A model generated the notes under the pieces. It did no database searches. It was not told the origin of the DNA and saw only the letters and a list, made by a program, of their open reading frames with translations. Of a DNA stretch of 64,000 nt, positions 27,720 to 49,117 are shown piece after piece (the first letter of the stretch is position 1; every line of letters begins with the position of its first letter). The position numbers and the translations under genes are program-made. Origin of the DNA: Ginglymostoma cirratum (Eukaryota); the NCBI GenBank assembly GCA_024137785.1, contig JAHRHZ010000155.1, positions 736,165-800,164 on the forward strand, read 5' to 3'.

Positions 27720-28100
27720 CATGATCTAGAAAGATGATCTGCCTTTGGTCCAGATTTCAGTAAGAAGTAGAAACTTTTCAAAGACATCGATAATTGGAAT
27801 CAGTCTTTGAACAGTCACAACATCAACAAAGGATGATGTTGGTCATAGAACCGAGTTCCAAATGTTACGTTACTTACCTACTCCCTGTCCGACTGCTCGC
27901 CTGGAGAGTAACCGCCGATGCTCTCTTCTTGGGCTGAATGGTTTTTCCCTGTGCTGTTCACTCTGTGTATTACATTAAAAGTGCTGATGTATCACTGTGA
28001 GTGACATCAGGAAGTGGGTACAGAGTGTCAAAGTGGCAGATGATCTGGCTTTACCACAAAGAAGCTTTGACACCTGTGCAGGACCTGACAATATTGCTCT
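27720..28100 (-). promoter_or_regulatory. Promoter/non-coding exon 1 cassette P1 (gene A); donor after 27878
   Basis: TAG|GTAAGT donor, ETS core CACTTCCTG (28008-28016), RUNX-like TGTGGT (~28053); homologous to four plus-strand cassettes. Confidence 0.65.
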
Positions 28101-28129
28101 ACAGACCTGGACAGCTATTGACATGGTTC

Positions 28130-28410
28130 AAAGTGGCTGAATGGTCTCCTCCTATTCCATTGTAACAGTGTCAAGGGACTGAAAGGTTTTCTCCTGTTCC
28201 AGCGTAACAGTGTTGGTGGACTGAATGGTCTCCTCCGTTCCAGTGTAACAGTTTTGATGGACTGAATAGTCTCCTTCCATTCCAGTGTGGCAGTGTCGAC
28301 AGGATGAATGGCCTCTTCTGTTTCTTTATAACACGTTTCAGGGGCTGAAAAGCTTCCACCTGTTCCTGTGTAACAGGTTTGAGGAAGTGCCTGAATGGGC
28401 CACTTCCTGT
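28130..28410. repeat. ~36-bp degenerate tandem repeat between the divergent cassettes, ending in an inverted ETS pair
   Basis: ggactgaatggtctcctcctgttccagtgtaacagt units; AGGAAGTG (28382-28389) and CACTTCCT (28401-28408). Confidence 0.8.
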
Positions 28411-28419
28411 TCCTGCCAA

Positions 28420-28700
28420 GTCACTGACTCTCTCATCTACACAGAAATAACCAAAGATCTTTCCACCAGTTTGCAGTTTGCTTGTAGTGTCAGATGTGGT
28501 GCTGTTTTCTCACTATTTCTTTATTTCCTGACTTGAATCACCTTAACACTTTCTCATTAAATACACAAGGGCAGCAGCACAGCAGAAGGCCATTCCACCC
28601 AGGCAGAGCATGTGGGCAGTTACTCCCCATGCAAGTATTAGGACAGCTCAAGGTAAGCAACATAGTGGCAAAAAGTCACTTCCATGACCAACATTGTATT
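28420..28700 (+). promoter_or_regulatory. Promoter/exon 1 cassette P2; donor after 28652
   Basis: ATTTCCTG (28523), aatacaca..cagcacag..gcagttactc, AAG|GTAAGC, ..atgaccaacat; truncated by a SINE at ~28705. Confidence 0.6.
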
Positions 28701-28704
28701 TCAT

Positions 28705-44675: not shown

Positions 44676-44715
44676 ATGATCGGGAAATCTTACTTCCTGC
44701 TGTCACTTCTCCAAG
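44676..44715 (+). CDS. Siglec-like gene C signal-peptide exon (MIGKSYFLLSLLQ; exon 44634-44715)
   Basis: Coding part 40/40 identical to leader A; acceptor CTTTCTCCTTCAG, donor AAG|GTAATG. Confidence 0.88.
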
Positions 44716-45559
44716 GTAATGTCACCATCAGCTCAGACAGACTTATGTTTGATAGTTTTTGTTAAAGGTTATTCTCACTGAGCTCTGATTAGAAACCAAT
44801 TCGGCAGTGAGCCAGTGTACAAACTCAGACCAAGTCCTGCTCACCCATCACCCCTGTGTTCATTGATATACACTGACTCTCAGTCTGACAACAGTAATGA
44901 AGCAGCACAGACAGCTTGTAGCGTACATTGCAGATGTAAAGGAGGTTACAGAGTTAGGGAATGGAGAAGGGAGATAAGAGATGGGAAATAAATGGTGATT
45001 ATCATAAAGTTGAAGCTTTGGCAACCAATGAAAATCAGTGAAAAATGATCCAGTTGTAGGAATGAGCCGTGATAAAAACTGGGGAATGACATTTACTCTG
45101 AAGCTACTAGTCCAATTACAATTTTCTGAAATGTGTGTCTTTTGTTGGTTTTCATTACAATTTCCCATGAAGACCACAAAGCAGCTCCTTGAATAGAAAG
45201 GCAGTTCAGATTCACAAATCCTGTCCATCCCCACTGTGCTAGAAATCCCAATAAGTGTGCAAGATAACAACAGAGAGAAGGAGGTGAAGCAGTCAGTAGA
45301 GAAGGTGTCAAACATTCAATTCCATATTTATCTTTACTGTCAGCACATGCAGAGCTCAGGCTAGAGGCACTTTGCTCCAACTTTTCATAATGTCTGGTAC
45401 ACTAGTGTCAGTGCTGAGCTTGGGGACCAGTCAGGCGGCAATGCTGTCTTGGAATCAAGAATGCAACAACATTGGATTTGGATCAAAAGTAATCCCTTAG
45501 ACAATCATGATGCAGAGAGATCTGTTCATCAAAGAAGATCCAAAGTGATTCCTTACAGC

Positions 45560-48380
45560 AGGAAAGGTGTTAAGGGGAGGTCATGTCTGAACACTTGGTT
45601 GATTTTTTCAAAGAGGTGACCGGGTGTGTAGATGGGGGGGCAATGGGTTTTGAAGTAGTCCTCTTGGACTTCAGCGAGGCTTTTGATAAGGTCCTGTATT
45701 GGAGGCTGATACCAAGTGTCAGAGCTCATGTGATCCAAGGAAATGTGGCAAATTGGATTCACAGTCGGCTGAGTTTCAGGAAGCAGAGGGTGATGGTTGA
45801 AGGGTGTTGTCTCCACTGGACATTTGTGTCCTGTAGGATCGCACAGGAGTCGGTATTGGGATTAATGCTAGTTGTGGTTTATATAAATGATTCACACTCG
45901 AGTGTCGGAGGGTTGATCAGTAAGTGTGCAGATGACAGAAATGTTAGTGAGGTTGAAAATAATAGGAAGGATAGAGATGAGCTCGTCAGATGGGCTGATC
46001 AGTGCCTAATGGAGTTCAACCCTGAAAGATGTGAGGTGATGCACTTGGGTAGGACAAACAAGGTAAAGGAATACATGATGAATCGTAGGACTCTGGGAAG
46101 CACCGAGGATTAGAGGGATCTTGGTGTTCATGTACACTGATCCCTCAAGGTATCAGGGCAGGTGAATAAAATAGTTAAGAAGGTGTTGTAGAACCATTGC
46201 TGATTTCTCATTATTTTTGTGTTTATTATGTTGTCAATTTTAGTTTGGAACTGTGACCTAGGAGTTGTGAGCTGAAAATAACTTGTGCACTTTCGAAGAG
46301 CTTGCGGTGAATGGAAAAAGAGACGAAACAAGCTTTAAATTGTTTATGATGCCAGGCCTGGGGGTTAATTGCAAGCTGGTTCTTGATTACAAAGATTCCA
46401 ACAGACACAGTGACCTCAGGAAGGTCAGTGTGTTTAAACAGAAGTTGCCTATTAACGAGGTCACTACCTGGGAATTGTTTCTGCCAGGTCTGGAAGGGGC
46501 TCTGCATTCAAGCGCACGGTGTATAGGATGAGCCAAAGGGCTAAAGTTAATGATGATATTCGACAGATGTATGAGAAGGTAGATTGTATAGGAAGGGCTG
46601 AATGGCTAAAATTGTTGATGACACTCGACAAGCTGCATGACTTTGGATGAGTCTTGTTAACATTCTTTTATGGACCGAAGGCTGCACCTGTAGCTTGTTT
46701 TCCTGTAGACGTGTTTTGTCTTCTGCTTTCTTTGTGCTAGAGAGAGAGAGAGTTTTGTTCCAAGTTGTTGGACTTCCCTTCAGCTCGGAATTGTGAACAG
46801 TGCCAGGAATGAACCTAAGCCTCCAGACCAGCTATCGATTGAGGGGTCCCCAACAGGCAGAAGAACATGAGACTTGTTGCTTTTTCTAGAAAGGTGTGAG
46901 ACTTGTTGCTATTTTTTCCTCTATTCTTTTCCATTTGTTATTACCACTATAATCATTTATTATTGCCATTATTATCATTATTCTTACTTAATAAACATTC
47001 ATATTTAAGAAAATTAATAATTTTCTTAAGAAAATTACTGTTGTCAAGCCTTCTCTTAATTATATTTAACTGAATCTGAAAAGAACTGCTTGGATACACA
47101 TTGTGATCCAAGACAGATGGCAGATGTTGAATGGTAATTGAGGCCTTGGGAAACGACAGTCAGCTTATCGAAGTGGAACCAGGTTGTTTTTGAACTGTGT
47201 TTTCTGGTGAGATGAGTTTGCTGCTGATGATACAGCATTAAGATTTGAAAGCTCCCTGCCTAATCTACCACACCAGCTTCCGGAAGCATAGAAAGCAGAA
47301 AGCTGCATTAGAAGTATTGCTACTTTTAACTGAGTGAACTCAAAAGGTGACCCTGATCAACATTTCCAGAGAAGCAACCAAGGAGTTCACATTTATACCT
47401 GTGAAACAATGCATCCTGTAAACCATTTAAGTCATCTGGCCAGTTTTGATATTGTCTTTTACATATCCATGAACTGTGTTATTTTGTCTGTCTGTTTGTG
47501 CAAATGGGAGCTAAAAACAAATGTTTCTGGTTTACAGGGTAGACATTAATCAGACTACCATGTTGTTTAATTTTTCTCTGCTAAAGTTATTGTATATTTG
47601 ATCAATTCTTAAGTCTTTTGCTTTATATACAAAATCAGTGTCTGGAATTAATTATTCTCAAAGTCTCGAATTATTCAGAAGTCTGCTTAGGAACCATTGG
47701 AGTAACTATTCGGGATCTTTTGAAAGCTTTAATTTTACTGTGTGGCGAATACAGAAATAGAAAGGCTGATTTGATTCGGCGTATCAAATACATGTCCTTG
47801 TTAGCTATGGCATGGAGTTCAAGACCGGGAAGTTGATGCTAGAATTGTATACAACATTGGTTAGGCCACAGATAGAGTACTGTGTGCCGTTCTGGTATCC
47901 ACATTATGGGAGGGATGTGATTGCACTGGAGAAGGTGCAGAGGTTATCTACCAGGATGTTGCCTGGGCCGGAAATGTTTTATTATGAAGAGAGATTAAAC
48001 AGGCTTGGATTGTTTTCCCTGGAGAGGAGATTGAGGAAGATGTGATTGAGATCTATAAAATTGAGGGGCACAGACAGGGTAGATGGGAAGAAGCCTTTCC
48101 CCTTGGTGGAGGGCTCAATGACCAGAGATTTAAGGTAAAGATAAAAAGGTTTCGATAAGATGTAAGGTAAAGATTTACCTGTAAGGGAGGGAGAGGCAGA
48201 GGCAGAGGCAGAAACCCTCAGAACATTTAATCAGTATTTCATGGTGCACTTGCCATACTCTCACCTGCAAGGTTATGGGTCAAGTGTGGGAAAATGGGAT
48301 CAGGATAGTTAAGTGGTTGTATTTGACTGGCAGGGATACAAAAGGCCAAAGGACCTTTCTCTATTCTGCAGATCTCTGTG
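45560..48380 (+). mobile_element. CR1-type LINE split by a ~1.6-kb unclassified (LTR-like) insertion at ~46187-47787
   Basis: ORF 45583-46113 (LDFSEAFDKV..YIND..CADD..FNPERCEVMHLG) resumes at 47812 (LYTTLVRPQIEYCVPFW). Confidence 0.85.
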
Positions 48381-48751
48381 ACATTAGTACCACTTATTCT
48401 CAAATTGTGATTTATAGACTCCAAGGGCTGCTGGTTAGAACAAATCAACAATGTGAGAGAGTGAGTGTGAAACAGCAGCGTGGGGGTGAAATACAGGAGA
48501 AATGGGAGGCTATTCACGTTGTATAAAGGAATGTGAGCTTGTGTTAGTCCGACATGTATAACTGAGAAGATGTCCTCTCTCAGAGCTCCCCAACATTCAT
48601 CCCCTTTCAAAATGATGGGGTCTCTCAACTCCTGTGGAATTCAGTAACCAGCCTTTAATGTATATTGAAACCTGCTCTGAGGCTGGTCATCCAGTGAGTC
48701 TGGTGGATCTACAGCCTATCCGATGCTAAATACTGATATTTCTCTCCTTAG

Positions 48752-49117
48752 CTGGACTGGCACAAAAGTGGAAAGGCAACACTCCACCTGAGGTGACAGC
48801 ACAGGAAGGTTCCTGTGCTCAGATTCCATGTAATTACAGTTACCCTTCATATCCGGCAAACCAAACACGAGTTGGAATCTGGTTTAATAACGAGAAACAG
48901 ATCACATTGTCAATAGCCTTTCACTCCCAGAATCACAGTCAAGAGTTACTACAGTTCTGTCATTGGACCCTGCTGTCTGGGAACCTGAAAAATGGAGACT
49001 GTTCCCTGATTGTGTACAGCATCACACAGGAAGATGCAGGACTTCATTATTTCAGAGTAGAATTTAAGGGAAAGGACAAATCCAGCTACTTTCCTGCAAC
49101 CAAACTTCATATTTCAA
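48752..49117 (+). CDS. Siglec-like gene C, Ig V-set exon (possibly a pseudogene or single-domain form)
   Basis: 366 nt, phase 1-1, intact AG and GTAAGT, open frame AGLAQKW..GSCAQIPC..GDCSLIV..EDAGLHYFRVE; no C2/TM exon found downstream in the window. Confidence 0.88.

Follow-up and report, generated by a model that had tools for sequence, protein, structure and literature searches.

Duplicated 5' modules in a Siglec-like gene pair of Ginglymostoma cirratum and a pre-leader exon that resembles a cytoplasmic tail exon

The stretch of DNA analysed here, called the window throughout, comprises 64,000 nucleotides of Ginglymostoma cirratum contig JAHRHZ010000155.1 (assembly GCA_024137785.1, positions 736,165 to 800,164 of the forward strand). 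A V-domain profile made from 85 sequences located two V-set exons in these 64 kb, V1 on the minus strand and V2 on the plus strand, accompanied by three leader exons (A, B and C) and by five copies (P1 to P5) of a cassette of ~380 bp, each with an exon that precedes a leader and is the main subject of this work. The minus-strand gene reads P1, leader A, V1, a C2-set exon, a broken Ig remnant, an Ig exon, a transmembrane (TM) exon and two tail exons. On the plus strand the order is P2, P3, P4, leader B, 12 kb of repeats including a long terminal repeat (LTR) element, P5, leader C and V2. The cassettes and the other members of the plus-strand unit are located as follows.

27747 to 28126, minus strand: cassette P1, with exon 27962-27878 (85 nt, near acceptor) or 27994-27878 (117 nt, far acceptor)
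28137 to 28376, no strand assigned: tandem array with a 42-bp unit, which separates P1 from P2 (head to head) on the upstream side of P1
28422 to 29061, plus strand: cassette P2, exon about 28570-28652, two upstream ATGs
30234 to 30598, plus strand: cassette P3, exon 30391-30471, two upstream ATGs, directly adjoining P4
30755 to 31115, plus strand: cassette P4, exon from 30880 or 30914 to 30985, 11-nt deletion, two upstream ATGs
31302 to 31383, plus strand: leader B, signal-peptide exon of 82 nt, phase 1, without a V exon of its own
44066 to 44404, plus strand: cassette P5, exon 44214-44286 (73 nt), no ATG, neither the ETS-like core nor the far acceptor retained
44634 to 44715, plus strand: leader C, 82 nt, phase 1
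48752 to 49117, plus strand: V2, Siglec-like V-set exon with an open frame, intact splice sites and the F-strand Arg kept

Our V profile matched only 18581-18219 and 48754-49116 in the window. Pfam recognised V-set and Ig_CD22 in both V1 and V2, and the best solved structures for V1 in the PDB were Siglec-5 (5e-15), CD33 and sialoadhesin. The homologue search gave 114 candidates, of which 65 were kept, all of them shark or ray proteins with Siglec-, MAG- or CD22-like names. V1 is closest to the whale shark protein XP_048476476.1 (93%) and the zebra shark protein XP_059497215.1 (90%) and is 62% identical to V2; in a quick, poorly resolved tree of V domains it clustered with whale and zebra shark proteins, and V2 was left without a close partner. 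Where Siglec-5 has its F-strand YFFR motif, both V1 and V2 carry an aligned Arg, and this column is R in 75 of the 85 shark V domains of the comparison set (85 distinct domains out of 99 matches, partial domains having been dropped). We take this residue to be the essential Arg that binds sialic acid. The C2-set domain and single TM segment that follow the V domain of a Siglec are both present in the minus-strand gene. Siglecs require an essential arginine for sialic-acid binding (PMC7547722). By its sequence features the locus is a Siglec-like gene pair, for which sialoglycan binding is predicted only. It shares with known Siglecs the V-set plus C2-set/I-set architecture, the TM segment and the tail with tyrosine motifs, and it differs in belonging to a shark-specific expansion with multi-V members, in its pre-leader exon paralogous to a tail exon and in the seeming lack of that tail exon in the window gene; the likeness to mammalian Siglecs is one of domains and structure matches and implies no one-to-one orthology. 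No description of shark Siglec clusters or of the pre-leader exon was found in the literature covered, which is weak evidence as most subscription journals lie outside this coverage; the whale-shark genome paper names Siglecs once, and its supplements may list the family (PMC8455134).

P1 to P5 form one DNA family. A profile built from the five copies themselves found exactly five full copies (E 7e-109 to 3e-72, the next, unrelated match being at E 0.016), and searches with single copies cross-matched independently at E<=7e-10. The original prediction had placed the same cassette once on the minus and four times on the plus strand, and this holds, each copy being recovered at E<1e-70. P2 is split into 28422-28706 and 28992-29061 by a repeat insertion (28706-28985) that interrupts the intron start; P4 with leader B and P5 with leader C form a duplicated block of 1.2 kb at 71% identity; and an array related to the one upstream of P1 sits before P4 (30600-30750). 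A short motif that recurs at the ends of interspersed repeats in the window is similar to the unit of the 42-bp array and to the first half of the P exon, with 24 of 27 positions identical at 177-203. We presume this motif to be a retroelement end, from which the P exon may partly derive.

The exons of P1 to P5 end at 27878, 28652, 30471, 30985 and 44286, and all five keep a last G followed by the GTAA donor, as had been predicted. An AG stands at the homologous near-acceptor site, or at most 2 nt from it, in five of five cassettes. The exon had been described as non-coding and ~120 nt long; its length from the far acceptor (106-117 nt) agrees with this, but from the near acceptor it is 72-85 nt, it does have acceptors, and it is homologous to a coding cytoplasmic exon. 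Donor columns are invariant at 5 of 6 positions versus 78 of 292 core columns (binomial p=0.006, which overstates the significance because the columns share their history and are not independent), and the exon has more invariant columns (24/54) than the upstream flank (20/86, p=0.014). It is not more conserved than the intron start (13/40 invariant, p=0.29). The supposed ETS core, ACTTCCTG, which we label an ETS-like motif by assumption, is exact only in P1 and P4; P2 and P3 retain no more than TTCC of it, and P5 has lost it by deletion, contrary to the claim that every cassette carries it. The octamer occurs 10 times in the window, including all three leader exons and two introns. The far AG lies directly behind the motif, which makes the motif part of the acceptor pyrimidine tract; because the sole evidence for promoters lies in this tract and is absent from P5, promoter choice is not supported. 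The copies of ACTTCCTG in the leaders are at 26913, 31360 and 44692 and those in introns at 26354 and 31870. Both intronic copies belong to a conserved patch ~500 bp inside the leader introns of A and B, changed in C, which may be a regulatory element.

Comparison of the 65 homologues with the window revealed that the residues just behind their TM segment match the supposedly non-coding exons. A tail-exon profile, made from 17 of the 28 collected juxtamembrane peptides (the remaining 11 come from a subfamily whose tail differs), scored 29.5 bits in P1 (E 3e-8) and 27.4 bits in P2 (E 1e-7); scores were weaker in P4 (10.1), P5 (8.7 and 7.6) and P3 (5.0), the best site outside the cassettes reaching 5.5. 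P3 to P5, which carry indels, are linked to the tail exon through the DNA homology of the cassettes. In P1 an AG falls exactly at the start of the coding exon, the resulting 85 nt have the same length and phases as the coding tail exon, and the frame of the tail-exon paralogue is open up to its last codon and holds no ATG. Among 125 proteins, the exon follows all 22 TM ends that fit the pattern of the subfamily, and as first cytoplasmic exon it was seen in carpet, mackerel, ground and horn sharks and in one sawshark protein. These matches show that the exon before the leader and the first exon of the cytoplasmic tail share one origin, and this paralogy between head and tail is the new part of the finding. 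An origin of the head from the tail is favoured by the exact match of acceptor and length, and a capture from head to tail by the pre-leader copies that precede genes of the subfamily without this tail exon; the tail search returned only shark members (10 of 152 candidates), so that either order may be the true one.

The use of these exons can be followed in relatives through automatic RefSeq models, which come from near-identical tandem arrays and were read as proteins. Within the basking-shark cluster LOC144671591 (15 of 20 members covered), 12 of 15 isoforms run from an upstream (tail) exon through P, P and leader to V, and the other three run leader, P, leader, V. Two of these three (X20 and X21) start P eleven codons earlier, at the far acceptor, and the extra codons align to the window DNA between far and near acceptors (E 2e-12 and 5e-11). 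At least three distinguishable P copies are joined to a leader in the basking shark, and at a second locus of that species two models have the order TM, P, P, leader. In one white-shark cluster, six of eight members begin in P and run into the leader; one white-shark model joins P to V and another joins TM, P and leader. These models indicate that the multiplicity of P does recur in other sharks, but in the form of chained internal exons. Some shark Siglec-like models (basking and white shark) carry up to eight tandem V domains, and others fuse a MAG-like N-terminus to the TM segment and tail of this subfamily, which suggests wide exon sharing across the cluster.

One reading of such chains is that the cassettes are internal exons only, either orphaned tail exons or 5' untranslated region (5'UTR) cassette exons, that the motif is a pyrimidine tract and that transcripts start elsewhere. 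It can point to the paired acceptors of the cassettes, of which the far one directly follows the motif and serves in X20 and X21, and to the internal position of P in every relative's model whose upstream side is visible, the white-shark TM-P-leader model included. We consider it unlikely: P1 and P2 stand head to head, with 574 bp between their acceptors and 508 bp, including the tandem array, between their cores; profiles for C2, I-set, TM and V found no same-strand family exon upstream of P1 or P2 within the window; and starts in a 5'UTR are invisible in protein models. Given this head-to-head layout and the lack of an upstream family exon on the same strand, a start in or near the P1 cassette is the simplest assumption, and a putative promoter there is plausible.

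An exon may serve both ways. Hybrid exons combine a 3' splice site with a transcript start, starts often centre on the acceptor, and most such exons arose as internal exons that gained promoter motifs, according to a study of these exons (PMC11797052). Transcripts of human hybrid exons frequently begin at the 3' splice site of the exon itself, which makes a dual role as first and internal exon plausible here, and a functional 3' splice site is indicated by the AG of all five cassettes and by internal use in the basking- and white-shark models. Unlike described hybrid exons, the shark candidate has a coding paralogue at the opposite end of the same gene family and has been multiplied as a cassette. 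By analogy, the closest model for its working would be a hybrid first/internal exon, within a Siglec cluster that turns over by birth and death.

We favour, with a probability of roughly 0.6, the view that each cassette is a 5' module duplicated in the birth-and-death turnover of shark Siglec-like genes, with a non-coding paralogue of the tail exon that is likely a hybrid exon. Such an exon would be a first exon when its own upstream region fires and an internal one when an upstream donor reaches it. P1 would be the working first exon of the minus-strand gene; unequal crossover and inversion would have produced P2-P3-P4-B and P5-C-V2, and gene conversion would have kept patches of the leaders alike. 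The plus-strand unit would be decaying, its transcripts spliced in chains (P-P-leader or leader-P-leader) that mostly yield no receptor product, the B-P5-C chain being short and P2 to P4 adding out-of-frame ATGs. Birth-and-death debris, which the original prediction had named as its null explanation, fits the window better than promoter choice does.

As predicted, leader B has no V exon of its own, the V profile having found only V1 and V2, and leaders B and C, both 82-nt phase-1 exons, are each compatible with V2: B-V2 and C-V2 alike can be read without interruption through the V exon, and a stop follows shortly after the start of the next intron. The leaders differ by one residue. In comparison with the 85 V domains, V2 departs at 4 of the 39 columns conserved at >=90% and V1 at one; only 6 of the 85 depart at four or more, and four of those six come from a ray. 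The changes in V2 include R71W (R in 84/85) and Y98H (Y in 83/85), at positions that we take to be the salt-bridge Arg and the tyrosine-corner Tyr. Profiles for C2 (63 sequences), I-set (55), TM (33) and V (85) detected no C2, I-set or TM exon and no further V on the plus strand, and no tail exon appeared in the 14.9 kb after V2 either. V2 has no orthologue among the proteins compared, the best being at most 68% identical, and a V-only model of the whale shark, the sole candidate of a search at near length, was rejected as one at 65%. P2, P3 and P4 each have two ATGs, one of which is out of frame and overlaps the main start, and P1 and P5 have none; the B-P5-C join terminates after 16 codons; and P2 to P5 carry indels and stops in the ancestral frame of the tail exon. 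On this evidence the plus-strand unit looks decayed.

The three units of P and leader are mosaic (maximum chi2 24, 0 of 100 permutations). The closest pair is B-C upstream of P (83%), A-C in the 70 nt before the leader (96%) and A-B after the leader (82%), and A and C share an exact tract of 57 bp in the intron just upstream of the leaders, likely a product of gene conversion. Because of conversion, conservation among paralogues cannot separate present use from recent loss. The near-identity of the leaders was likewise rejected as proof of use, as conversion is evident and the signal peptide is near-invariant in all shark members. Each of the three leaders carries an additional ATG 22 nt ahead of the main start, with a frame that differs from that of the main start and runs over it (26950-26929 on the minus strand, 31323-31344 and 44655-44676); in the whale and zebra shark orthologues of the minus-strand gene the upstream ATG is in frame, adding seven residues, through a one-base difference.

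Several observations weigh against decay and turnover as the whole account. Leader B has three private changes in 82 nt, versus ~11% in its flanks (p=0.016), and donors are intact in five of five cassettes (p about 0.006), so B and the donors have been constrained or converted until recently, or still are. In V2 the frame is still open, neither splice site is lost and the F-strand Arg is present. A body for it could lie past base 64000; shark genes can have several V exons, up to eight. Finally, mis-mapped reads in near-identical arrays can yield chimeric isoforms of the kind seen in relatives.

Some of the same facts would suit a working variable-promoter array, as originally proposed, in which P2 to P5 are alternative promoters that act via B or C and drive one V2 product in different cells, either a receptor with its body beyond the window or a secreted leader-plus-V protein of 137 residues. 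The conserved donors and near-intact leader B agree with it, as do the two in-frame joins and the stop at the start of the intron that follows. A leader-plus-V-only model of 178 aa exists in the whale shark (65% to V2), and in basking-shark models several P copies and spare leaders join one body. That last arrangement, cassettes and spare leaders before one body, is the part of the proposal that stands. The rest sits poorly with a motif that belongs to an acceptor tract, with the structural losses of V2 and with the absence of a body in 14.9 kb when C2 of the minus-strand gene follows its V by only 0.7 kb. Upstream ATGs burden P2 to P4, the ETS-like core is gone from P5, relatives' models chain the P exons, and promoter choice would leave the protein undiversified. 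We regard this reading as doubtful.

A further idea is that the plus-strand cassettes act as regulatory decoys, divergent transcription from P2 (and P3-P4) competing with P1 in the manner of the Ly49 Pro1 switch and setting the fraction of cells that express the minus-strand gene. The arrangement of P1 and P2, head to head around a tandem array, would suit it, and the upstream ATGs would make P2-P4 transcripts poorly translated; the Ly49 switch transcripts are non-coding or poorly translated (PMC4222648). The Ly49 element described there is one unit of 100 bp with overlapping sites, but here two whole cassettes lie ~500 bp apart, a spacing that any inverted duplication would give. This idea seems to us quite improbable.

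The features of the minus-strand gene are listed below.

7909 to 8016, minus strand: last coding exon, with two tyrosine motifs
8375 to 8482, minus strand: second cytoplasmic exon, starting in phase 0
8483 to 10008, minus strand: intron between the TM exon and the second tail exon
10009 to 10105, minus strand: transmembrane exon, with a phase-2 donor
12912 to 13193, minus strand: Ig exon, I-set-like
16584 to 16673, minus strand: remnant (3' third) of a second Ig exon, beside a 33-bp satellite
17215 to 17508, minus strand: C2-set exon, 0.7 kb after V1
18218 to 18583, minus strand: V1, V-set exon with whale and zebra shark orthologues
26890 to 26971, minus strand: leader A, 82 nt, phase 1

The last tyrosine motif at 8016-7909 is presumably of the ITIM type. 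Neither the peptide profile nor the cassette profile found a first cytoplasmic exon between the TM exon and the second tail exon, although both orthologues, in whale and zebra shark, possess one. A direct join of TM to the second tail exon meets a stop after four codons, ahead of every tyrosine motif, and would leave these motifs out of frame. As it stands in this sequence, the minus-strand gene may specify a receptor without a tail; alternatively, the first tail exon may be missing from the assembly or from this allele. The intron at 8483-10008 holds a 1-kb segment with inverted ends of 70 nt (8801-8870 and 9763-9832, 84%), possibly a DNA-transposon relic. Two candidates for a cryptic substitute for the missing exon were rejected, each having a non-consensus donor. 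The same intron contains a 42-bp array at 8857-9021, for which kinship with the array upstream of P1 was discarded because the score was no better than that of shuffles. At 16584-17159 lies an Ig exon with its 5' part replaced by the 33-bp satellite, which recurs at 7040-7272, 34392-34695, 37779-37896 and 61428-61677, and a run of N occupies 21400-21409.

A bolder idea treats head and tail as one interchangeable module: the TM exon would splice either to its own tail or to the head of the next gene, a cluster-wide switching of tails and 5' ends kept across shark orders. If so, an inhibitory receptor would come from joining the own tail, and a tail-less receptor or a chimeric transcript from joining the next head. 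The choice of body and the efficiency of its translation would be set by the arrayed P copies and the spare leaders. We hold this to be improbable, if attractive.

Other clustered loci help to place the arrangement. SIGLEC11 and SIGLEC16(P) are head-to-head Siglec paralogues with 5' gene conversion, also from a non-functional copy, but there the homogenised tract spans 2-3 kb including the V exon at >97% (PMC5701461), and in the shark locus only a leader patch is affected, the identity between V1 and V2 is 62%, and the partner lacks a body but carries additional cassettes. The protocadherin, UGT1 and GCNT2 clusters likewise have tandem paralogous 5' modules ahead of shared downstream exons and evolve by birth and death, but each of their variable exons encodes a stretch of protein that differs between copies and is joined by itself to intact constant exons (PMC1885805); the shark cassettes are non-coding and chained in relatives' models, and the plus strand has no intact body in the window. 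Judged by its sequence, the locus is not a cluster of the protocadherin/UGT1 type. With the Ly49/KIR switch it shares clustered immune receptors and divergent elements near the first exon (PMC4222648), but there is no single compact bidirectional promoter to be seen, the P1 and P2 cores being 508 bp apart, and by predicted structure the locus is not a Ly49-type switch.

A degenerate LTR retroelement (37936-42468, terminal repeats 79% identical) lies between leader B and P5 and contains an integrase zinc-binding domain at 39186-39497 on the minus strand. Some 4.8 kb after V2, a run of N (53957-54127) could conceal missing sequence. A tandemly duplicated non-coding unit of ~3.5 kb fills 54242-59430, its paired parts being 54242-54646 with 57788-58234 (74%) and 56855-57791 with 58532-59430 (77%); it had no Rfam, tRNA or Siglec match. 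Rfam and tRNA scans over the whole window returned no match, and a metagenome scan for relatives' DNA gave 91 pattern matches with none confirmed. A search of sequencing runs with the V1-C2 stretch listed no RNA data set.

Shark Siglec-like clusters are large and, in the literature covered, undescribed. A copy of a tail exon at the 5' end is an exon that changes its role, between coding and internal on the one hand and non-coding and first on the other. It is apparently present in two shark orders or more and accounts for the read-through and chimeric isoforms found in public annotation. It offers a concrete model for fusion, tail loss and promoter gain in tandem immune-receptor genes. If the chains are unregulated, they are a caution that repeated "promoter cassettes" can be the residue of duplication; if they are regulated, they would represent a new way of varying receptor signalling.

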